Position numbers and translations under genes: made by a program. From a bacterium (lineage in GTDB: Bacteria > Zhuqueibacterota > Zhuqueibacteria > Zhuqueibacterales > Zhuqueibacteraceae), in contig JBIOXB010000139.1 in NCBI GenBank assembly GCA_044869275.1, forward strand, positions 1 to 64,000: a DNA stretch of 64,000 nucleotides, written 5' to 3'. This document shows, in pieces, positions 44,268 to 55,990 of this stretch. The notes beneath the pieces are model-generated. The model did not search any database and was not told the DNA's origin. It was given only the letters and a program-made list of their open reading frames with translations. The first letter of the stretch is position 1. Each line of letters begins with the position of its first letter.

Positions 44268-46346
44268 ATGACCACACCTGTGAAATTTTGTGAACATCCC
44301 TTCTTCTATCGCCGCCGGCCCACGCATGAAGTGAAAATCGGCGAGGTCGGCGTCGGTGGCGACAATCCCATTCGCGTGCAGTCCATGACCATTGCAGATA
44401 CCATGGACACCGCCGCGACCGTGAAAGAAACGATTCAGCTTTATGAAGCCGGCTGCGAGATCGTGCGCATCACCGCGCCCTCGATGAACGAGGCGGAGAA
44501 TCTACGCAACATCAAAGCGGAATTGCAGCGGCAGAATATTCGCGTGCCGCTGGTGGCGGATATTCATTACACGCCCAACGCGGCGCTGGCAGCGGCGGAG
44601 ATCGTGGAAAAGGTGCGCATCAACCCCGGCAATTACGCGGACAAGAAAAAATTCGAAGTGCGCGAATATACCGAGGCCGAATATCAGGGGGAATTGGAGC
44701 GCATTGCACAACGTTTCGCGCCGCTGGTGAAGAAGTGCAAAGCCAACGGCGTGGCCATGCGCATTGGCGTGAACCACGGCTCGCTCGCCGATCGCATCAT
44801 GAACCGTTACGGCGACACGCCCGAGGGCATGGTGCAATCAGCGCTGGAATTCATTCGCATCTGCGAGGCGCACGGCTACAAGGACATCGTGGTGTCGATG
44901 AAATCCTCGAATCCGCAGGTGATGATTCAAGCGTATCGCCTGCTCGCCGGCCGCATGTATGAATTGGGCATGACGTACCCGTTCCATCTCGGCGTGACCG
45001 AAGCCGGCGATGGCGAGGACGGCCGCATCAAATCAGCCGTAGGCATCGGCTCTTTACTGGAAGACGGCCTCGGCGATACCATTCGCGTGTCTTTGACCGA
45101 AGATTCGATCTATGAGCTTCCGGTGGCGCAAGCGCTGGTGAGAAAATTCAACGCTGGGCGTGAAAAAAATGGCGCAGCGCGGGAAGCAAATGAAGCACGG
45201 GTCTCGCAATTTCCCGTAGTGCCGGAAGACTGGGCTCGCGTGGTGAAACCTTACGAATACAATCGCCGCGCGGCGCAGCGGGTCGCAGTTTCCGGTCTGG
45301 CGCTGGGCGAAAAAGAGTTGGTGCGCGTGGGCATTTCGCTGGCGCACAACGGCGCGGCGGATGACGAAGTGCGGGCCGCGGTGCCGAAAGCGAGTTATGG
45401 CAAAATCAAAGTATTGGGCGCGCCCGAGCCGCCAGCGGAAAATTTCGCTGAATGGCTCGAAACCGGCGCGAACGGTTGGAATCTGCAGCACACGCGCGCA
45501 TGTTTGCAAAACACGGGGCAACATTCCCCTCTCGCCGCAACCTGGCAAAGCTTGAACGGCGAGAAAGCGCCGGAAACCGTGTTGTTGTTTATGAATGAAG
45601 CGAGCGCGGAAGAAGTTGTTTCGAGCTGGCGATATGCACAGCGGCACGGCGCACATTTGCAGGCCGTGCTCACAACTGAAATGATTGCCGAGCGCTCGTT
45701 TTTTGCAAATGCGGATTTGCTCAAAAACGTGCTTCCGGCCGGAGCCTCGTGCTCGATTGCCATGGCCATTCCCGGCAATCGCCTCGGCCAGGTGGGCTTG
45801 GTGCGCATGTTCGTGAGTTATATCGATAAGATCGGCCTAAACGTGCCGCTGATCTGGCGTTATCAGGTCCCGCCCGATTTGCGCGGCTCGGCCACGGATT
45901 GGATGCTCGATGCCAGCAGCCAGCTCGGCGCATTGTTGTGTGATGGGCTTGGCGACGCCCTCGTGGTCGAAGGCTTGATCAAACCGGCAGAAGCTTTGCG
46001 TTTTAGCTACAATTTGTTGCAAGCCACGCGCTTGCGCATTTCCAAAACCGAATTCATCTCCTGTCCAAGCTGCGGCCGCACGCTGTTCAATTTGCAAACC
46101 ACCACAGAGCGCATTAAATCCAAAACCAGCCATCTAAAGGGTGTGAAAATTGCGATCATGGGCTGCATCGTCAATGGCCCGGGCGAGATGGCGGATGCGG
46201 ATTTCGGCTACGTCGGCACCGGCCCAAAAGTCGTGAGCTTGTACGTGGGCAAAGAATGCGTGCAGCGCAACCTCCCCGAGGAGGAAGCGGATGCGCGGCT
46301 GATTGAGCTGATCAAAGCGCATGGCAAGTGGGTGGAGCCGGGGTAG
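44268..46346 (+). CDS. ispG: HMBPP synthase, long (inserted-domain) form
   Basis: PIRVQSM, PLVADIH, RINPGN, RIGVNHGSL, HLGVTEAG, ISCPSCGRT, IMGCIVNGPGE. Confidence 0.96.
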   Translation: MTTPVKFCEHPFFYRRRPTHEVKIGEVGVGGDNPIRVQSMTIADTMDTAATVKETIQLYEAGCEIVRITAPSMNEAENLRNIKAELQRQNIRVPLVADIHYTPNAALAAAEIVEKVRINPGNYADKKKFEVREYTEAEYQGELERIAQRFAPLVKKCKANGVAMRIGVNHGSLADRIMNRYGDTPEGMVQSALEFIRICEAHGYKDIVVSMKSSNPQVMIQAYRLLAGRMYELGMTYPFHLGVTEAGDGEDGRIKSAVGIGSLLEDGLGDTIRVSLTEDSIYELPVAQALVRKFNAGREKNGAAREANEARVSQFPVVPEDWARVVKPYEYNRRAAQRVAVSGLALGEKELVRVGISLAHNGAADDEVRAAVPKASYGKIKVLGAPEPPAENFAEWLETGANGWNLQHTRACLQNTGQHSPLAATWQSLNGEKAPETVLLFMNEASAEEVVSSWRYAQRHGAHLQAVLTTEMIAERSFFANADLLKNVLPAGASCSIAMAIPGNRLGQVGLVRMFVSYIDKIGLNVPLIWRYQVPPDLRGSATDWMLDASSQLGALLCDGLGDALVVEGLIKPAEALRFSYNLLQATRLRISKTEFISCPSCGRTLFNLQTTTERIKSKTSHLKGVKIAIMGCIVNGPGEMADADFGYVGTGPKVVSLYVGKECVQRNLPEEEADARLIELIKAHGKWVEPG

Positions 46347-46347
46347 C

Positions 46348-46478
46348 TCGTGGATTGTGGATAGATGATCGAGGATCGAGAATTGATGATCGAGAATTGT
46401 AGTTTGAGATTTAAGAATCTATATGGCACTTCACGATCCACAATCCACCATCCTCGATCCACGATCTTCGATCTTCGA
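46348..46478. repeat. Inverted heptamer array (GATCGAG / CTCGATC units) overlapping the luxE-like start
   Basis: gatcgaggatcgagaattgatgatcgagaattg ... cacgatccacaatccaccatcctcgatccacgatcttcgatcttcga. Confidence 0.8.
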
Positions 46479-47532
46479 TTTTATTTCAAACGCCGGTCTC
46501 ACAATCTTCGACGAAAAGACATTCGGCCAGCTCGCCTTGCAGCTTTTTCGTTATCAACTTCAACACAACCCGATTTATCGCAGATTTTGCGAGCAAGCTT
46601 CACCACCCGCCATCGCTCCGCGTCATTGGGCTGAAATCCCCGCGGTCACGACCAGCGCATTCAAACATGTGCCGTTAACCTGTTTTCCTCCGGAACAAGC
46701 GCATGCCGTATTTCATACCAGCGGCACTACGGCGCAGCGCAGCGGCAAACATTATTTTCGCACTTTGGAATTCTATCGCGCCGCGATGTTGCGCAGCTTT
46801 CGCGCTTATTGCCTGCCTGATCGTGAAAAAATGCTCATGCTTTTTCTCGGGCCGACGGCTGAACATTTTCCCAACTCGTCTTTGGGCTATATGTTTTCCG
46901 CCGTGCACGAAGAGTTCGGCGCAAAAGGCAGCGCCGCGTTTTTCACACCGGAAAAACTGGCGCTGACCGAATTCCGGAATGCTGTCGAACGAGCCGTGCG
47001 AGAACCGGTTTTCATTTTGGGAACGGCTTTCAATTTGTTGCAATGCATGGAGGAATTGCTGAAGAGCGGGCGGCATTTGGTGCTGCCTTCCGGCAGCCGC
47101 ATTTTGGATACCGGCGGCTACAAAGGCCGCACACGCGAAGTGCCGCGCGAGGAATTTCAAGAGATGTTGTCCGGCTGTTTCGGTGTACCGGGACATTTCG
47201 TATTAAATGAATACGGTATGACGGAATTGAGCTCGCAGTTTTATGAAAGCCGCTTGCCGGGCACACCATTGCGAGACGATAAGGTAGACATCAAGTTCAT
47301 GCCGCCCTGGGTGCGCGTTGTTGCCGTTGACCCGGGGAATTTGCAGCCATTGCCCGCGGGCGAGATCGGCATGCTGCGCATTTTTGATTTGGCAAATGTC
47401 GATTCCGTGCTGGCGATTCAAACCGAAGACTTGGGTCGGGCGTGGCAGGATCGCCTTGAATTGGTGGGCCGCGCGAGCGGGGCGGAATTGCGCGGGTGTT
47501 CGCTGCTCACGGAGACAATTGCTAGAATATGA
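46423..47532 (+). CDS. LuxE-like acyl-protein synthetase
   Basis: FHTSGTT, DTGGYKG, EYGMTELSSQ, IQTEDLG, GRASGAELRGC (LuxE acylated Cys). Confidence 0.88.
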   Translation: MALHDPQSTILDPRSSIFDFISNAGLTIFDEKTFGQLALQLFRYQLQHNPIYRRFCEQASPPAIAPRHWAEIPAVTTSAFKHVPLTCFPPEQAHAVFHTSGTTAQRSGKHYFRTLEFYRAAMLRSFRAYCLPDREKMLMLFLGPTAEHFPNSSLGYMFSAVHEEFGAKGSAAFFTPEKLALTEFRNAVERAVREPVFILGTAFNLLQCMEELLKSGRHLVLPSGSRILDTGGYKGRTREVPREEFQEMLSGCFGVPGHFVLNEYGMTELSSQFYESRLPGTPLRDDKVDIKFMPPWVRVVAVDPGNLQPLPAGEIGMLRIFDLANVDSVLAIQTEDLGRAWQDRLELVGRASGAELRGCSLLTETIARI

Positions 47533-48896
47533 CTAATTCTTTGTCAAATAAGAATCCAAAGCTGCCATCTGCATTCGTGCCCCTTTCATCGGGGTTTGCC
47601 CGCGAGCATCAGGGCTTGTCTCCTGCGGAGCTATCCCGTCTATTGCAGGCTTTTCACACTCACGCAATTGAAATTGAAGCAAATGCCAAAGACTGGCAAC
47701 AGCGCGCGCTCAAAGCCTGGCACGCCGTGGCGCGCGCATGGGAAAACTGGCAATTCCCGGGAGCAGAAGCGGTGCTGGCGCAATTGGAAAACAATACGCA
47801 CATGAGCCCTCCGGTGCTGCGTGAAAGCCTCGCTAATCATTTTCGCATGATCAGTACGGCGGAAATGGCCGCGTGGCTGGAAGAAGTTGAAGAAGGGCGC
47901 GCGACCAATGCCGGTGAAAATGGCTATCCTGCCTGGGCTTTTATCATTGGTTCGGGAAACATTCCAGGCGTCGCTTTGCAGCCGCTCATCCAGTTTTCAC
48001 TGCTGGGCATTCCAGCCTTGGTCAAATCTGCCAGCAGCGAACCGCATTTCATGCCCGCGGTCTTGACTACACTCGCGCAGTATGATGAAGAAGTCGCCGC
48101 GCACACGCTCGCGTTAACTTGGCCGCGAGATCAAGAAATTCTGACCGACGCCGTGCTGGCGCAATCACCGGCTGTGGTTGCGTTCGGAGATGATGTCACC
48201 ATGGCGCGGTTGCAGCACAAGGCGGCAGCGAGTTTTGCGCCGTTCGGAGATCGTTTCAGCACGTCGATTGTGTCAGCGGCGGGAGCCAAGCTGCAAACCC
48301 TGCGCAAGCTGGCCTATGATTTCATCATGTTCGATGGCAAAGGTTGCCTCTCCCCGCAAGCGATTTTTGTGATCGCGGACACATGGGAAGAAGTGGAAAA
48401 TTTTGCCATGCATCTTGCGGGTGTGCTGGCAGAAGAAAATCAAAAATGGCCGGCAGGACACTGGTCTGAGGCCGAAAGAGCTTTGATTCAACAGTGGCGC
48501 GGGGCGTGGCAGATGCGGCGCGCCGCCGGTGATAAGATCGCCATACTTCAGCCCAGTGACACTGCGTGGTCCGTGGTCGCAGCGGATGAGTTTGATTTGG
48601 ACGATCGCACGGCGTTTCGAGCGGTACGTTTGTGGTGGGTGAAGGATTTTGCAGAAGTCATGCTGGTGCTGAAAAATCACAGCCACAAAATTCACGCACT
48701 CGCGGCCGATCTCAAAGATGAAGAATTTGCTCGGCTCGCGCTTGATCTCGATGAGCAAAAAGAGCTGCTAGGCCGCATCATCTGTGCTCCTGGAGAATTA
48801 CAGCGCCCCTTCTTTGGATGGATGGGAATCAATCGGCGGTGGTTTGAGTTGATGCATGGCATTGGGTTGGGAGTTGGTGACGGGGCGAGTGGGTGA
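47529..48896 (+). CDS. LuxC-like acyl-CoA/acyl-protein reductase
   Basis: SGNIPG, VKSASSEP, VVAFGDD, DGKGCLSPQ catalytic Cys; ATGA overlap with luxE-like. Confidence 0.8.
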   Translation: MTNSLSNKNPKLPSAFVPLSSGFAREHQGLSPAELSRLLQAFHTHAIEIEANAKDWQQRALKAWHAVARAWENWQFPGAEAVLAQLENNTHMSPPVLRESLANHFRMISTAEMAAWLEEVEEGRATNAGENGYPAWAFIIGSGNIPGVALQPLIQFSLLGIPALVKSASSEPHFMPAVLTTLAQYDEEVAAHTLALTWPRDQEILTDAVLAQSPAVVAFGDDVTMARLQHKAAASFAPFGDRFSTSIVSAAGAKLQTLRKLAYDFIMFDGKGCLSPQAIFVIADTWEEVENFAMHLAGVLAEENQKWPAGHWSEAERALIQQWRGAWQMRRAAGDKIAILQPSDTAWSVVAADEFDLDDRTAFRAVRLWWVKDFAEVMLVLKNHSHKIHALAADLKDEEFARLALDLDEQKELLGRIICAPGELQRPFFGWMGINRRWFELMHGIGLGVGDGASG

Positions 48897-49030
48897 GTGG
48901 GTGAGTGGGAGAGTGGGAGAGTGGGAGACTGGGAGACCGGGTGACGGCCGACGAGGTGATCAAGTGCTTTGACGACTTCTACTCCCCCCTTCCCCCTGTC
49001 TCCCCGTCTCCCCGTCTCCCCATCCCCATC
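48886..49030. repeat. Inverted octamer array (GGGAGAGT / TCTCCCCG units)
   Basis: gagtgggtgagtgggtgagtgggagagtgggagagtgggagactgggagac ... ccctgtctccccgtctccccgtctccccatcccc. Confidence 0.8.
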
Positions 49031-49060
49031 AAGCATCGGTTCTCATCGAAGGCGAAACGT

Positions 49061-50248
49061 ATGCTAAAAGACTTTCTCACCTACCTTTGCCAGACTTCCC
49101 CCGAGCCGCTCGGGCTGGAAATCGATCATGTCCAGGGTATCTATCTTTACACGCGCGACGGCCGGCGTTACATTGATTTCATCTCCGGCATCGGCGTGGC
49201 GAACATCGGGCATGGCCATCCGAAAGTGCTCGCCGCTATGCAGGCACAAATGCAGAAACATCTGCACGTGATGGTTTACGGCGAATACGTTCAGGAAGCG
49301 CAAGTGCGATATGCCAAACGCCTTTCGGAGCTTTCGCCGGTAAAAGACGGCGTCGCCTTTTTCTGCAACAGTGGTGCGGAAGCGATTGAAGGTGCACTCA
49401 AGACCGCACGCAAATTTACTGGGCGGAAGAACTATATTGCATTCGAAGGCGGGTATCACGGCGATACGTACGGCGCGCTGTCGGCGATGTCGAGCAGCTC
49501 TTATCGCCGTCCTTTCGAGCCGCTGTTGAGAGAATTTCAATTCATTCCTTTTGATGATCCTTCCATGTTGCACCGAATTGATGAAAATACTGCCGCCGTT
49601 TTGTTCGAGCCGGTGCAGGGTGAGGCCGGGGTGCGCGTTCCTGCGCCGGAATTTTTGCCGGCGTTGCGGCAACGCTGCGATGAGACCGGCGCGCTCATGA
49701 TTGCCGACGAAGTGATGACCGGCTTCGGCCGCACCGGAAAGTTATTCGCCTGCGAGCATTGGCAGATTCAACCTGATATTGTTTGTCTTGCGAAGGCTTT
49801 GGGCGGCGGTCTGCCGCTGGGCGCTTTCATCGGCCGGCGTGAAATTATGCAAACTCTTTCGCACGATCCGCCCTTAGCGCATGTTACCACCTTCGGCGGA
49901 CATCCTTTGAGTTGCGCCGCAGGCTTGGCCGCGCTGGAAGTTTTATTGACCGAAAAAATGGTGGAAAACAGCGCGCGAAATGGCGTGCGTTTTCTGCATG
50001 AACTGCAGTTAAATCTGCAAAACAACAAATCCATCAAAGACATTCGCGGCCTGGGGAGTTTTTTTGCCATCGAGTTCGATTCGGAAGCCGCCACACAAAG
50101 ATTCGTGAAGAACTGCCGCGAGGCTGGCTTGATCATCGGTTGGACGTTGCACCATGCCACGATCGTACGCGCCGCTCCGCCATTATGCATGAACGAGCAG
50201 GAAGCGGAAGCGGCCATTGCAATCATGATTCGCGCGGCGCAGTTCTAA
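49061..50248 (+). CDS. Class III PLP aminotransferase (ArgD-like)
   Basis: [57 protein letters not shown]; start re-called at 49061. Confidence 0.93.
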
Positions 50249-50552
50249 GATTAAATTATTGTCAAATTATCCGTTGGCCTTAATCAATCCATTGGAGAAA
50301 AAAGTTAGAATCTCATTCTGAGTTTACTTTGCTGGTCACCTAACCGCTAGCTTTGTCAGCTTGTCCCCACATTCCCTCCGCCCTCCGGGTGTGAAATCCT
50401 GGCCAATTCACAAAAATTGCGATTACTGTTCATAGGAATTGTCCTACGCAAATGACGAATCCGGCAAGTAGTATTCACTCGTATACCCAGATTTCAGCTT
50501 CGACTCCGCTGTGCACGGAATTCGACCGAATGGGTTCCTTCTTGGAATCAAC

Positions 50553-51023
50553 ATGAAAAAACCCGTAATCGTTATGGCGGGCGTGTTCGCCCTTACGCTG
50601 TGGCAAGTTGGATGCTCTGCCCCTCACCGCATCTCGAGGCCAGCAAAACTGCACATTGTTTCTTCGCCGCGCTTGAATCTGGATGAAAATGGCTACGCCC
50701 ATCCCGTCGAAGTCCGAATTTACTTTTTGAGATCGCACCACGCTTTTGCAAGCCGTAAATCGCTTGAGCTTTGGGAAAATGATGATGCGATTTTGACCCG
50801 AGACCTGATTTGGAAGAATCAAATAACAGTTTTTCCTGCTCGGGATAACACGATGATTCTCCCGAGGCCAGAGCTGGCGCAAGCAGGTTATCTAGGCATC
50901 GTTGCCAATTATATCAAACCCCGCCTGAACCAGAACAAGGATGTCTTTGCTTTGCACCAGGGCCAAAGCTTCACGCTGAAGCTTGAGCCTCGACATCTCA
51001 GCCTCGAAGTCAACAGCAATTGA
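50553..51023 (+). CDS. tssJ: T6SS outer-membrane lipoprotein TssJ-like
   Basis: Lipoprotein signal ending QVG-C, LNLDENGYAHPVEVRIYFL, YLGIVANY; adjacent to tssL/tssM. Confidence 0.8.
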   Translation: MKKPVIVMAGVFALTLWQVGCSAPHRISRPAKLHIVSSPRLNLDENGYAHPVEVRIYFLRSHHAFASRKSLELWENDDAILTRDLIWKNQITVFPARDNTMILPRPELAQAGYLGIVANYIKPRLNQNKDVFALHQGQSFTLKLEPRHLSLEVNSN

Positions 51024-51096
51024 GCCAGAAGATATGATTCACGCACGCATCACGAAGCTTTGAACAGGCAACGAATCGTCAATTCAGGATAGAAAA

Positions 51097-51822
51097 TTGA
51101 ACTCGAGCTTACCCAACACCGAGCAGAAGCTGGCGGAATTGTGCACGAACATTTTTTCACTGGCATTATGGCTGCGTACGCAAAGCGATTTGGGCGCGCC
51201 TGAGAATCTGCGCCAAAAAATTCTCCCGTTGTTTACCAAGATGGAGACGGAGGGCGCCCAAAGAGGTGTCCCGCCCGTCGATCTACGCGAGGCAAAATTT
51301 GCCCTCACCGCTTTGCTCGATGAAACGCTCATGGGTTCGTCCTGGCCCGGCAAAAGCAATTGGGAAAAGCGCATGTTGCAAGACGAGCTCTTCAACACCA
51401 CCAATGCTGGCGAGGAGTTTTTCATCAAGCTCGAACAATTGCGACGCGCAGAGAGTAAAGAAACCGCAGTGTTGGAAGTCTTTCATTGGTGCTTACTGCT
51501 CGGCTTCGAAGGCAAGTATAATGACCGCGAGACACTCGATACGCTCATCTGGGAACTCAGCCAGGAACTAGGCCTGAAGATGTTCTCTTTGCAACAGGAA
51601 TTGTCGCCGGGCTTGAGGCCGCTGGAGCGAGCTTCCCACGTGCGCCAACGAAGCCCGATATCCGCGGGCATCATCTGCGCGGTCTGCATGGTGGGAAGCT
51701 TGCTTTGTTTCTTGATTTTGGAAAACCGTCTCAGCGCACAAGCGGAAACCGTTAAAGCGCGCCTCGAATGGATACTGGCGAAACCCTCGCCCGGACAAGA
51801 AGGAGCTCAAAGGACAAAATGA
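51097..51822 (+). CDS. tssL: T6SS DotU/TssL family protein (no OmpA domain)
   Basis: AKFALTALLDE, LQDELFNTTNAGEEFF..LE.L, LEVFHWCLLLGFEGKY, C-terminal TM. Confidence 0.92.
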   Translation: MNSSLPNTEQKLAELCTNIFSLALWLRTQSDLGAPENLRQKILPLFTKMETEGAQRGVPPVDLREAKFALTALLDETLMGSSWPGKSNWEKRMLQDELFNTTNAGEEFFIKLEQLRRAESKETAVLEVFHWCLLLGFEGKYNDRETLDTLIWELSQELGLKMFSLQQELSPGLRPLERASHVRQRSPISAGIICAVCMVGSLLCFLILENRLSAQAETVKARLEWILAKPSPGQEGAQRTK

Positions 51823-51951
51823 TTGGAGGCGTAACGATTTTTGGAATCGTTACGTTTTGCCTTTCGAAGTTTTTGTCTGATGAACGGCCCTTTGGCTCTT
51901 TGGTTTTTGAGGTGAACGAGCCCGAAAAAGACCTATGCACAAACGGACCCA

Positions 51952-54900
51952 ATGGAACATCCTCAATCTTCAAAACAATCTCAGCATACCCGCCTTGGAA
52001 TAATGCCGGAGAGTGCGCCGCTGCCAACGGTGGCGACGGAAAACGCAGATTTAGTCACTTCTGCTCAGGCAGAGCTACCACGTGAACCGCATATCCCCCA
52101 ATTCTCGGAAACCATTCAAAGTTCTCGTCGCCGCAGGCCGTTTGAAAAGCAGCCTTGGTACTTGATCACGGGACCGCTGGGCAGCGGCAAGAGCACGGCG
52201 TTACGACACTCGGGAATGAAGCCTTCGCGGGACACTGCTTGGAAAATCACAAAAGGAAAGACTGCGCCTGCAACTAAGGATTATGAATTCTATTCCACGC
52301 ATGATACGGTTTGGGTAGACGCCTCGGGCCGCTACGTCGATCTCAGCAGCGATACCTTGAATCTCGAAGAATGGCGGGCCTTTTTCAAGCAACTGGCCAA
52401 GCAGCGCTCGCCAAAAGCTTTTCAGGGTTTGCTGGTCATGGTCAGCATGGTGGAGCACACACCCGGGCGGTTCGGAATTTTGACAGCCAATGCGCAAGCG
52501 CTCGAGCGCCAAGCTTTACTGCTGCGTAATTTCATCGACGAGCTCATGGCACTGTTCGGTTCGCGCTTCCCAGTATATCTGATCGTGACCAAGTGCGATC
52601 TGGTGAGCGGTTTCATTGAATTTTTTGATGATCTCGGGGAGGCCGAGTGCCAACAAGTGTGGGGTAGCACCTTTGCGTCAACGTTATCACAACCCGGAGC
52701 AGGCTTAGAGAGTTTTGGACAAGAATGTGAACAGTTGCAGCACGTGCTCAAAATGCGGAGGTCGAGCAAGCTCCTGGACGCGGAAACTACGGAGGGCAAG
52801 CGTGAGATTTATAACTTTCCCCTACAATGGTGGGAATGCCAACGCCGGCTCGCGAGTTTTGTTGCCGCACTTTTTCAACACGATCCGGACCATGAACCGG
52901 TATTTTGGCGAGGTTTTTATTTTATTAGCAGCGTACAGGAAGGTCTAACGATCGATGGGGTTGGCCGAAGCATAAACGACTACCTAGGCCTGCCTGCGGA
53001 AAATCCCAAGCCGGTCAGAAGCGAACAGAAGAGTTTTTTTCTCAAAAATCTGTTCACACAGTTGATTCTCGCGGATCGCTATTTGATGCAACCACATCCC
53101 GCAGTTGATCGCCGCCAACAAATGCGGCAATGGGTAGGCGTGGCCGCGGCTATTCTACTGGCAGGAATCTTGATTAGCGGTTTTTCAATCTCCTATTACG
53201 GGAACAAGCGCTTGCTGCAGGCCGCACAGCAAGCGGCTGAGCGCGCAGCACCTCTTGCGCAAAAAAATATGCCGCGCGATCTATTCGCACTGGATAGCTT
53301 GCGGGTCCTGGTGAAAAGCCTGGAGAAGCAAAAACCATTCGCGCTGCGTTGGGGCCTGTATCAGGGAGAAAGAATAGTGCAGCCCACGCGGAAAATCTAT
53401 TTTGCAAGCTTGCTGCGCGCCCTGGTGCATCCCGTCCAGGCCTCTTTGGAACAGCGGCTCAATCAGCCATTCTTTTGCGCCGGGAATCGCGATTCTTGTT
53501 ACCTGCTGCTCAAAACGTATCTTATGCTGGACACGAGCCGGTGCCAATTGGATGAAAGTCTCCTGCGCCGCAAAATGTTCGAGATCAGTCAGGAGCTTTA
53601 TCGCAGGCCGCTGCCCAGCGGAGATGCCAGTGCCTTGGCGCGGCAGATCGATTTCTATGTGGCGCACTTCAAAGATCCCAACCATCCGGCACTGCGCCTC
53701 AACGAAAACTTGGTGCAAATGGCGCGCAGGCAGTTGCAAGGCGTGGCCACCGTGGAAATGGTTTATACCAATGCGAAAGCCGCTGCCGAGCAAGCCCCAC
53801 TCATGGCAATAGCTTTGGAAACCATCTTTCAAAACCAAGAACAGGATCTTATGGCGGGAGATTACTCCGTTCCTGGTTTGTTCACCAAGCCCGGCTGGGA
53901 ACGCTTACGAGCCGAGCTGGAAAAGTTCAGCAGCACTGAGCAGCAACGAGATTGCGTTTTGGGTCTGGCAACTGGCCCTCTGGCGAGCCGGTCCGATCGC
54001 GCAAAGATGCAGACACAGATCGAGAATCTGTATTTCAAAGAGTATCATGAACATTGGCGCCGCTTCATACAGGGTATCTCCTTGCGGCGTTTTAGAAATC
54101 TCAAAGATGCCGCCCAGTCTCTTAACGTGCTCACAGGACAGTCCTCACCGCTGATGACGCTGGTGAAAATCATCGCCGAGCATACGGACCTCAAGCAAGA
54201 ATTGACGCAGGCGCAATTCGCGGAAAATCCCTCGCCTTTCGAAGCGACGCCCCCGCTTGTGCAAGTAAAGCAAGATTTTCAACCCATTCAGCGTTTATTG
54301 TTGGTGCAAGACGGAACGGTAACGCCGCCCCCTATCACTCCATATTTTGACGCATTGGCGGAGCTGGGCGATGCGATGCAGGAGATCTCCGCGGCGCCGG
54401 AGGGCGGAGCCACCGCTTTTGCGCAAGAGCTTCTTTCCGGCAAAAATAATGCTTTATCGCGCGGGATGGAGAATATCGGGCGCATCTTGGGCCATCGTGA
54501 TAGCTTGCTGCGACCCCTGTGCGAACAACCCTTTAAATATTCCTGGGCTGTGATTCTGGTTGCGGCACAAGCGCACCTCAATAAGCTTTGGGCCAATGCC
54601 GTGTACACCCCCTTCGTCGAGACGCTCGCGACCAAGTATCCTTTTGATCCTCAAGGCCGCGAGGACGCGAGCCGCACAGAAGCGGGCGACTTTTTCAAAC
54701 CAATAAACGGAACCTTCTGGAGTTTTTTTGATAAACACCTCGCTGGATTCGTCGATCACCAGTCCGGGCGGACGAAAAGCCAGCCAGGATTCGAGGGCAT
54801 TCGCTTATCCGATGATTTTCGTGAAGGCCTTGCGCAGGCAGATTTCCTCTCGAAGAACCTTGTTGCCGCGGAGCGGCAAACACAACCGATCTTTTTGCGC

Positions 54901-55263
54901 CTGCAACCGGAGCCACCGCAGAATGCACCAAACATTGATGCCATCGAGCTGTACTATGACGGTAAAGCCTACCAGTACAAGATGGGGCAGCGACCGATAT
55001 GGACCCTCACCTGGCCGGTGGCCAATCAAAAGGTTCAAATCATTGCCAAAACACAAAACCGGATACTCGCGATAAAAGTTTTTGCCGGTCATTGGGCGCT
55101 GTTTAGAATGCTGCGCGCTGCCAGAATGGAGCAACACACCCTGTATTGGAATTTCGAAGGAATGAAGACCAATATCGGGTTCACGGTGGTTGAAATGAGC
55201 CCCACTTTGTTACCCATGATAAAAAACCTGCAAAGCTTTCACTGCCCGGGCAAGTTAGACTAA
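51952..55263 (+). CDS. tssM: T6SS IcmF/TssM family protein lacking N-terminal TM helices
   Basis: PWYLITGPLGSGKST Walker A, VDASGRY, FPVYLIVTKCDLVSGF, WRGFYFISSVQEG, single TM, VPGLFTKPGW, KYPF, GHWALFRML. Confidence 0.9.
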   Translation: MEHPQSSKQSQHTRLGIMPESAPLPTVATENADLVTSAQAELPREPHIPQFSETIQSSRRRRPFEKQPWYLITGPLGSGKSTALRHSGMKPSRDTAWKITKGKTAPATKDYEFYSTHDTVWVDASGRYVDLSSDTLNLEEWRAFFKQLAKQRSPKAFQGLLVMVSMVEHTPGRFGILTANAQALERQALLLRNFIDELMALFGSRFPVYLIVTKCDLVSGFIEFFDDLGEAECQQVWGSTFASTLSQPGAGLESFGQECEQLQHVLKMRRSSKLLDAETTEGKREIYNFPLQWWECQRRLASFVAALFQHDPDHEPVFWRGFYFISSVQEGLTIDGVGRSINDYLGLPAENPKPVRSEQKSFFLKNLFTQLILADRYLMQPHPAVDRRQQMRQWVGVAAAILLAGILISGFSISYYGNKRLLQAAQQAAERAAPLAQKNMPRDLFALDSLRVLVKSLEKQKPFALRWGLYQGERIVQPTRKIYFASLLRALVHPVQASLEQRLNQPFFCAGNRDSCYLLLKTYLMLDTSRCQLDESLLRRKMFEISQELYRRPLPSGDASALARQIDFYVAHFKDPNHPALRLNENLVQMARRQLQGVATVEMVYTNAKAAAEQAPLMAIALETIFQNQEQDLMAGDYSVPGLFTKPGWERLRAELEKFSSTEQQRDCVLGLATGPLASRSDRAKMQTQIENLYFKEYHEHWRRFIQGISLRRFRNLKDAAQSLNVLTGQSSPLMTLVKIIAEHTDLKQELTQAQFAENPSPFEATPPLVQVKQDFQPIQRLLLVQDGTVTPPPITPYFDALAELGDAMQEISAAPEGGATAFAQELLSGKNNALSRGMENIGRILGHRDSLLRPLCEQPFKYSWAVILVAAQAHLNKLWANAVYTPFVETLATKYPFDPQGREDASRTEAGDFFKPINGTFWSFFDKHLAGFVDHQSGRTKSQPGFEGIRLSDDFREGLAQADFLSKNLVAAERQTQPIFLRLQPEPPQNAPNIDAIELYYDGKAYQYKMGQRPIWTLTWPVANQKVQIIAKTQNRILAIKVFAGHWALFRMLRAARMEQHTLYWNFEGMKTNIGFTVVEMSPTLLPMIKNLQSFHCPGKLD

Positions 55264-55264
55264 A

Positions 55265-55354
55265 ATGACGGCGCGCAAGGGCGATCAGGCGGTGCATGGG
55301 GGTGTCATTGTTGCCGGTTGTCCGACCGTAATCATTGGGGATTCGGGCGGCTAA
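55265..55354 (+). pseudogene. C-terminal PAAR-domain fragment (29 aa, not in the ORF track)
   Basis: ATG 1 nt after the tssM stop; MTARKGDQAVHGGVIVAGCPTVIIGDSGG matches the final PAAR repeat (AR.GD...HGG.I..GCPTV.IG). Confidence 0.75.
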
Positions 55355-55374
55355 CCTTCACGAAAAGACAGCTA

Positions 55375-55587
55375 TCAAACAGTGACATGAATGGTTTCTA
55401 AATAGACGGAATCATTTTGCGGTACAAGTAGGTCGCTTTTCATGTTTGACATAGTTTCCAAATACCCTACGATCGCTTCGGCGGTATTTTTTCTCACCTC
55501 TACGACAGTTTCTCCGATCGCATTGCAGCCGGGCAGGTCTGGACAATAGGCCCAATAGCCGTCTCCTTCCTCATTTTTCTGAATCAC
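55375..55587 (-). CDS. HicB-family antitoxin (orphan, possibly 5'-damaged)
   Basis: GYWAYCPDLPGCNAIGETVVEVRKNTAEAIVGYLE; only a GTG start; no hicA seen. Confidence 0.78.
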   Translation of the reverse strand: MIQKNEEGDGYWAYCPDLPGCNAIGETVVEVRKNTAEAIVGYLETMSNMKSDLLVPQNDSVYLETIHVTV

Positions 55588-55664
55588 GACTTTGCATTTA
55601 CAGACACACTAACATGCTGTAAAATATTACCGTTAGCTGATAGAATCAAGTTTTTCGATCCGCA

Positions 55665-55940
55665 ATGCCCGAAAATATGTTCGAATGTCCTCGACGAGCA
55701 GCTCGGGCTCTTCCAACGCGGCAAAATGGCCGCCGCGAGCAGGGTTCGCGCGTCCTGCCCATCATCGTTCGTCCCTGCAAGTGGCAAAGCGAGCCGGCGC
55801 TCAGCAGCCTGCAAGCCTTGCCGAAAGACGGCAAGGCAGTGATTACTTTCTCCAAAGACAACGGTGACCGAGATCAAGCTTGGTCGGACATTACGACTGC
55901 TATTGAAAAACGCGCCAGAGAGAAATCGAAAGTGATTTGA
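55665..55940 (+). pseudogene. TIR-domain C-terminal fragment
   Basis: RVLPIIVRPCKWQ...LQALPKDGKAV...RDQAWSDI is the second half of bacterial TIR domains; N-terminal FISY half absent. Confidence 0.7.
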
Positions 55941-55952
55941 TAACGTTAAGCC

Positions 55953-55981
55953 GTAGAGACGTTCCGGCGGAACGTCTCTAC
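55953..55981. repeat. GTAG-type REP palindrome
   Basis: gtagagacgttcc-ggc-ggaacgtctctac perfect 13-bp stem between convergent genes. Confidence 0.75.
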
Positions 55982-55990
55982 AATGCGCTT

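Follow-up and report, generated by a model that had tools for sequence, protein, structure and literature searches.

The membrane complex of type VI secretion systems (T6SS) is described as a trans-envelope assembly of TssJ, TssL and TssM that tethers the TssK baseplate, with TssM normally carrying an N-terminal hairpin (PMC6517824). This complex is known only as the dock and channel for the TssK baseplate and the tail. T6SS loci lacking tssJ exist and use other factors (PMC13584744). One co-option was found in print: Legionella recruited the TssL and TssM homologues DotU and IcmF for placing and assembling its type IVB secretion system, the membrane helices being differently arranged (10.1101/315721), and IcmF is described as having one predicted helix and a Ras-like domain (10.1101/2023.03.22.533729). 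Here, a locus is described in which tssJ, tssL and tssM are kept as three intact, co-oriented open frames from which tssK has been deleted. It lies in a 64-kb window (the whole stretch of DNA analysed, to which coordinates refer unless another contig is named), which is contig C139 of genome G000 (6.67 Mb, 255 contigs, 94.4% complete) from an uncultured host. The three genes, hereafter called the island, are under purifying selection, and comparison with relatives identifies them as the residue of a full T6SS cluster of subtype i (T6SS-i) cut by deletions. That they now provide a co-opted, TssK-free envelope scaffold for a new partner has in our estimate about an even chance of being correct.

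The first gene, tssJ (50553..51023, forward strand, as for all features below unless stated otherwise), encodes a predicted lipoprotein of 156 aa (PF12790, E 5.8e-20; TIGR03352, 71.8 bits, cut-off 31.6). It is followed by tssL (51097..51822; DotU family, PF09850, E 1.1e-45; TIGR03349, 150.2, cut-off 89.95) and tssM (51952..55263; 1103 aa, TIGR03348, 602 bits, cut-off 388, with all four IcmF Pfam domains). An earlier reading made without database searches (the sequence-only reading) had recognised the three co-oriented open genes and the 73 bp separating tssJ and tssL. Both observations were confirmed, each protein scoring above its curated TIGR cut-off; position 55354, given there as the end of the locus, is in fact the stop of a PAAR-like stub.

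Compared with the Sci-1 T6SS-i of enteroaggregative Escherichia coli (6IXH, 6HS7), the island agrees in that all three subunits pass curated cut-offs, in the matching periplasmic fold, in the TssL cleft for TssM and in the gene order J-(K)-L-M. It differs in the deletion of tssK, in the absence of baseplate, tube, sheath and ClpV genes from the searches of G000, in altered switch-region motifs of TssM and in the lack of the N-terminal TssM hairpin described in PMC6517824. With DotU/IcmF of Legionella it shares the retention of TssL and TssM without a T6SS, a single helix in the TssM homologue and a Ras/Arf-like cytoplasmic domain. Unlike that system, the island has kept tssJ, its TssM scores 143.7 against the IcmF cut-off of 1000 bits and groups with T6SS TssM proteins of the same phylum, and no type IV secretion genes were found: G000 contains no match to VirB4 (PF03135; control positive) and none to DotH or DotI (PF12293, PF11393), for which no control genome matched either. 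The island TssL is above the threshold of the less strict IcmH/DotU model (57.4 against 50) but scores higher on the T6SS model. By these profile comparisons the island is a parallel to DotU/IcmF, not a member of that group.

The host belongs to KSB1, a phylum of the Fibrobacteres-Chlorobi-Bacteroidetes (FCB) superphylum (PMC11683472), whose main text contains no match to secretion or T6SS terms. An FCB-like host had been anticipated by the sequence-only reading and agrees with the label of candidate division KSB1 carried by proteins of two genomes of the same family (G002 and G012). Its expectation that a proteobacterial-type membrane complex would be unexpected there was not supported, since T6SS-i type TssK together with TssM occurs in 11 of 60 relatives. 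T6SS-i is found in 9 of the 18 other family members and is no surprise in such a host. Within the set of 61 genomes, TssM was detected in 12, TssK in 11 and TssJ (PF12790) in 4, and G000 was the only genome with TssM and without TssK. Full KSB1 T6SS-i clusters have the order fha-[tssJ]-tssK-tssL-tssM-tagF-tssA-tssB-tssC and are the probable source of the island, to judge from sequence relationships: the TssM proteins of two of them (G031 and G105) are sister to that of the island, and the remnant of tssK described below matches the starts of cluster TssK proteins. In contrast to the island, these clusters keep tssK and the tail genes, possess the TssM hairpin and mostly have no recognisable tssJ; their identity to the island is only 26-44%. 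In several of the relatives' T6SS loci, a gene for a Ser/Thr kinase that also has a formylglycine-enzyme-like domain lies upstream, and an FHA gene is present; in the sister cluster of G105 (L101:1064-4524) tssM is split into two overlapping frames of 547 and 627 aa.

The deletions that shaped the island were traced by comparison with the congener G001, in which the trio is also present and again follows the aminotransferase gene that flanks it in G000. The tssK stub, all substitution-rate and divergence figures, the island ends and the alternative of a T6SS served in trans (see below) rest on this unpublished genome; a second unpublished genome, G014, was used only in tallies, the stub search and the tree. 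In G001, the gap between tssJ and tssL measures 153 bp and opens with about 30 TssK-like codons. In a tblastn comparison with 27 loci, 12 tssK genes of relatives matched it at their N-termini (best E 3.5e-10), and it was tblastn, not Pfam, that recognised the 47-aa stub. The G000 gap alone matched no T6SS gene. Both of its halves align at the DNA level with parts of the G001 gap, with 80 bp additionally missing, and a deleted-tssK stub of nine codons is left at 51034..51063. The notion of a gap without tssK therefore stands as far as the gene is concerned, whereas the gap is not empty. Since the main tssK deletion is common to G000 and G001, it predates the split of the two copies.

Homology between the two genomes extends from about 240 bp 5' of tssJ to the tssM stop codon. 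In G000, this stop is directly followed by the PAAR-like stub (55265..55354; 29 codons, PF05488, E 0.0019, 18.8 bits, cut-off 27). The stub is absent from G001. There, nothing homologous extends past the tssM stop, and the next sequence is a degenerate copy of the start of the aminotransferase gene, so that the G001 island is bracketed by the aminotransferase gene and this copy. The arrangement in G000 was independently confirmed by contigs of run X2, from another sample, which equal the window with zero differences at 49897-50765, 51717-51986 and 55189-55481 and thus verify the left-hand junction, the interval between tssL and tssM and the right-hand end. A strain from a further study (X3) covers 50403-51399 and 54343-55609 gap-free, with the same short tssJ-tssL gap and the same right end. 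Matching sequence was listed for 17 sequencing runs, none of them RNA; run X13 contributed 151-base pieces only.

The remaining T6SS components were sought throughout G000. Profile searches of its contigs, with positive controls, gave no match for TssK (PF05936), TssC (PF05943), Hcp (PF05638), TssF (PF05947), PAAR (PF05488) or TssB (PF05591). VgrG models reached only the spike of an extracellular contractile injection system (eCIS) on contig C217, far under cut-off; no T6SS vgrG was found. The sheath-like matches in the genome belong to this eCIS as well. The tube protein TssD of the Bacteroidota subtype iii (PF17642), in which TssNOPQR replaces TssJLM as membrane complex, likewise gave no match, yet no control matched either, and the island itself is of the TssJLM type. 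All open frames of the T6SS loci of nine relatives (G001, G003, G004, G017, G031, G105, G144, G136 and G021) were used as tblastn queries, and their T6SS-gene matches in G000 were limited to its own tssJ, tssL and tssM, a housekeeping-type Clp protein and FHA or kinase domains of a generic kind. As a candidate ClpV, this Clp protein, encoded on contig C137, was rejected, because it scores 824 bits against a cut-off of 885, close to the second, non-cluster Clp of G001 (830), whereas the T6SS ClpV of G001 reaches 1025. G000 thus has the membrane genes of a T6SS-i, and none of the baseplate (tssK and tssF, with tssE and tssG), tube, sheath or ClpV genes of a complete one were found. The lack of partner genes that had been noted for the window accordingly extends across the 94.4%-complete genome in both profile and tblastn searches.

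A split locus, with a full T6SS encoded elsewhere, had been named as a finding that would refute the sequence-only reading. No such locus was found in G000 as assembled, although G001 carries a complete T6SS on contig C378 (TssK, TssB, ClpV and VgrG over cut-off) in addition to the same trio. The C378 cluster has no tssJ, and the island tssJ is the only PF12790 match in that genome. Together with the incompleteness of G000 and its division into 255 contigs, this agrees with an unlikely alternative, namely that the trio is a second, TssJ-bearing membrane complex serving an ordinary T6SS in trans, which G000 lost recently or which its assembly misses. However, a PF12790 match is absent genome-wide from 8 of the 11 relatives having TssK and TssM, and these T6SSs thus seem able to dispense with TssJ. 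The G001 cluster also owns a tssL and a tssM, which are only about 30% identical to those of the island, its TssM falling into another clade. Fragments of mutS bracket this cluster (domain I on one side, domains IV-V on the other; L097:3857-4375 and L019:8405-8647), which suggests a separate insertion and not something that G000 must share. Moreover, G000 yielded no orphan hcp or vgrG and no whole PAAR gene, and the remodelled cytoplasmic domain of TssM (see below) would speak against normal TssK docking.

Retention of the trio was assessed from its substitutions. The 1496 aligned codons of tssJ, tssL and tssM show no indel and no stop between G000 and G001, and the 325 substitutions are distributed over the three codon positions as 82, 76 and 167. 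The ratio of nonsynonymous to synonymous substitution rates (dN/dS) was 0.25 for tssJ (bootstrap confidence interval 0.12-0.50), 0.36 for tssL (0.20-0.60) and 0.32 for the first 709 codons of tssM (0.24-0.47). Amino-acid changes numbered 158. Among 2000 neutral simulations run with the observed transition bias, the mean was 224 and the lowest count 195, and no simulation stayed free of stops. Taken singly, tssJ (17 changes against 26.7 expected, P 0.0002), tssL (28 against 37.1, P 0.005) and each TssM domain were significant, the exception being TssM residues 1-60, which are unconstrained. The three genes have thus been under purifying selection since the shared tssK deletion, as the uninterrupted tssM frame had hinted to the sequence-only reading. 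Its choice between a repurposed channel and a decaying T6SS was drawn too sharply: the locus is what deletions have left of a full cluster, yet its three membrane genes were kept.

Erosion of the locus has nonetheless proceeded stepwise. A further 80 bp of the tssK stub were lost in G000, the tssM leader has a stop codon in G000 where G001 has Trp, and the PAAR stub is gone from G001. In addition, one contig of run X4 (80% likeness) has at most about 410 bases between the aminotransferase end and tssL, compared with 848 in the window, and this relative has apparently dropped tssJ. These steps, and a dN/dS above that of the flanking genes, fit a decaying, functionless relic whose selection signal is inherited from the T6SS era or stems from selection against misfolded membrane protein. 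We consider such a relic the least probable of the explanations weighed here. It is opposed by the 1496 codons without stop or indel, unmatched in any neutral run, by full-length clade members at 58-71% identity, by catalytic motifs that were kept while neighbouring conserved columns changed alike in the TssM relative P0009, and by constraint on the leader DNA as well.

This leader, a conserved non-coding segment at 50310..50552, differs from G001 at 18 of 243 sites, fewer than the four-fold degenerate sites (86 of 618; Fisher p 0.007), and is probably a promoter or regulatory region, as its conservation suggests. It contains no sigma-70 consensus promoter, no terminator and no Rfam match.

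Four-fold divergence of the island between the two genomes is 0.139, compared with a median of 0.43 across 89 orthologue pairs, of which four are at or below 0.22. The pairs were drawn from 229 open frames in 18 G001 regions, after removal of those with less than 55% identity, fewer than 150 aa, fewer than 40 four-fold sites, a non-coding frame or duplication. The low value points to exchange of the island between lineages after the split of the hosts, or to its acquisition by one from near the other. Four other pairs (C38:2211-4079, C33:3011-3586 and C163:44550-50542) have four-fold divergences of 0.03-0.16 to G001; they are possibly further recently exchanged loci and candidates for the partner.

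The island TssM has been remodelled on its cytoplasmic side. It is a single-pass protein with a disordered stretch (residues 1-49), a GTPase-like domain, one membrane helix near 391-420 and a complete periplasmic arm. Its AlphaFold2 model (mean predicted local distance difference test score 80, confident from residue 50 onward) found 6ixh, 6hs7 and 4y7l/4y7o as best Foldseek matches; the periplasmic fold matched 6ixh and 6hs7 with E 1e-17 to 8e-12, and weak matches to Arf-type GTPases were also returned. A hydropathy scan detected no hydrophobic segment ahead of the P-loop, whereas 54 of 56 homologues with a length of 900 aa or more have one or several there. The N-terminal membrane hairpin has thus been lost from TssM. 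An 88-codon frame with a hydrophobic N-terminus and no Pfam family (51819..52085) starts on the tssL stop, an arrangement also present in G001, and is probably a frameshifted relic of this hairpin. A contig of run X4 has two extra bases after 51924, which would fuse the frame to tssM provided that there is no further indel between them. A programmed frameshift that would link the two frames was considered; G001 does not share the A-run near 51925. P0087, a TssM from a different clade that is unrelated to the island protein (24% identity), likewise starts without a membrane hairpin, and the hairpin may therefore have been lost more than once.

In a FastTree phylogeny of 45 TssM sequences, whose deep nodes are unsupported, G000, G001 and P0009 (1107 aa, 71% identical to the island TssM, same start residue) form a clade whose stem branch has a length of 1.29, with tips of 0.05-0.23. 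Its sister group consists of the T6SS TssM proteins from G031 and G105 (support 0.97); the TssM of G001's own T6SS cluster belongs to a separate clade. At 132 family-conserved columns the island clade keeps 64-68% of residues, compared with 82-100% in 41 of 42 others and 69% in the distant G136. The 46 conserved columns altered in G000, 31 of which have the same state in P0009, concentrate ahead of the P-loop and around the switch region. The G1, switch Thr, DxxG and TKxD motifs are kept (P-loop G79-K80, T108, D123-G126 and T213-K214-D216), so that the nucleotide-binding motifs are intact.

TssL has one hydrophobic segment (185-212), a C-tail anchor, and no OmpA domain. D75, E76, G136 and F137, cleft residues named as binding TssM in 10.1101/2023.03.22.533729, are invariant in seven of seven clade members, and its clade relatives are open frames at 84-54% identity. 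TssJ, whose clade relatives are 89, 84, 75 and 58% identical, has a hydrophobic stretch at 4-23 and a Gly-Cys21 kept in all four clade members covering it; the residue at -3 of the lipobox is polar and departs from consensus. Complex prediction with TssJ 27-156 and TssM 860-1103 scored 0.00 in two of two runs and weighs neither way. TssL and TssM probably constitute the core, TssJ being more dispensable.

The sequence-only reading had also suspected a contractile system elsewhere in the genome, and this was borne out. A complete eCIS is encoded at C217:16487-50634, comprising sheath, gp19 tube, Pvc16, AAA ATPase, hub, spike, DUF4280, gp25 and baseplate J genes. Also encoded there are two proteins of the eCIS core (PF13699), the product of one of them being 1769 aa long and containing a hydrophobic stretch, together with a protein of Ig-like repeats and a pair of DUF6519 proteins. 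As the sole contractile machine found in G000, with eCIS loci in G001 as well, it could be held in the envelope by the trio as a cell-bound injector, via a new adaptor replacing TssK; docking of a phage-like baseplate is the ancestral task of TssJLM. Anchored contractile injection systems (T6SS-iv, the thylakoid-anchored and the Streptomyces systems) provide a precedent for eCIS-type tails tethered inside the cell, using dedicated anchors, not TssJLM. In G000, the eCIS tail genes are present, and a physical link to the island is hypothetical. Anchoring of the eCIS by the trio is quite improbable, and several observations speak against it. Of 19 family genomes, 12 have an eCIS-type sheath, and 10 of these 12 lack the island. 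The compared eCIS proteins of G000 and G001 are 50-82% identical, compared with 89% for the island, so that the two were not exchanged together. Co-occurrence thus lends this link no support; moreover, the loci are unlinked and no adaptor is evident.

The co-opted scaffold would have arisen as follows. An ancestor of the KSB1 genus to which G000 belongs acquired a T6SS-i cluster, which deletions pared to tssJ, tssL and tssM; these were then remodelled and retained under selection. Judging from the intact domains and the known complex, a trans-envelope scaffold most likely still assembles, in which TssM would place its GTPase-like domain inside the cell and a channel-forming arm in the periplasm, TssL would be bound to TssM in the inner membrane and TssJ would form a cap at the outer membrane. 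A TssK baseplate would no longer dock, and the altered cytoplasmic face most likely binds a different partner. The complex would thereby serve some other process of the envelope as its nucleotide-regulated anchor, landmark or conduit, comparable to DotU/IcmF in the Legionella type IVB system.

Several points weigh against this co-opted scaffold. No type IVB or VirB4 genes were found for a Legionella-like role (the type IVB controls being silent). The four flanking genes have a lower dN/dS of 0.11-0.17 (dS being near saturation there), the selection test comprises one genome pair only, and the full T6SS of G001 could be the agent of selection. With G000 94.4% complete, an unassembled T6SS island is possible. 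The X4 interval is too small for a whole tssJ at this site, and a better ribosome-binding site at the upstream, out-of-frame ATG means that translation of tssM could be weak. Finally, loss of tssK is shown for two genomes and one further strain only, the DNA around the genes for P0009 and the remaining clade proteins being unreadable.

The island is rare. In a phylum-wide search, TssL matches occurred in 16 of 167 genomes, with the island type only in G000 and G001; these two are 88% identical, and all other TssL proteins of the phylum reach 31-39%. At the orthologous aminotransferase site, tssJ, tssL and tssM were absent from each of 10 further loci of the family, of which three were short. 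A locus scan of genomes returned only the two G001 contigs. Metagenome scans gave no confirmed locus among 25 stretches with TssM and 28 loci with a TssL alignment, all 31-45% identical and none of the island clade. Searches of open-licence PubMed Central and bioRxiv found no relevant paper pairing KSB1 with type VI secretion and, supplements being outside the search, no report of a selected tssJ-tssL-tssM module without tssK.

The left flank is formed by a class III aminotransferase gene (48905..50248; PF00202, E 1.4e-111), with the island directly 3' and the same flank in G001. On the right, a HicB-like antitoxin fragment follows on the reverse strand (55375..55587; PF15919, E 1.2e-8, 55 of 123 profile positions). 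The description of the neighbours as fragments thus applies downstream, whereas the upstream aminotransferase gene is whole. A 91-aa frame within 55375-55940, without Pfam match, presumably resembles the C-terminal half of a TIR domain, and a short repeat near 55945-55985 recurs at other places in the genome. The upstream block of ispG, luxE-like, luxC-like and class III aminotransferase genes (44268-50248) is recurrent in the family in varying order, with no luciferase genes in view.

What the locus means depends on the reading. As a membrane complex serving a T6SS in trans, it would be a modest case of a split or auxiliary complex. If it docks the eCIS, it would be a cell-anchored injector rebuilt from TssJLM and an unrelated phage tail, replaying the presumed origin of the T6SS. 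As a co-opted scaffold, its putative steps are readable in DNA: staged deletion of tssK, loss of the hairpin and change of the switch region, then purifying selection. If the trio indeed works without a T6SS, it would be a second independent co-option beside that of Legionella, one that has kept TssJ and for which searches turned up no type IV system, and would open the prospect of a role for the GTPase-like domain of TssM beyond baseplate docking and of TssJLM being re-coupled to other machines.

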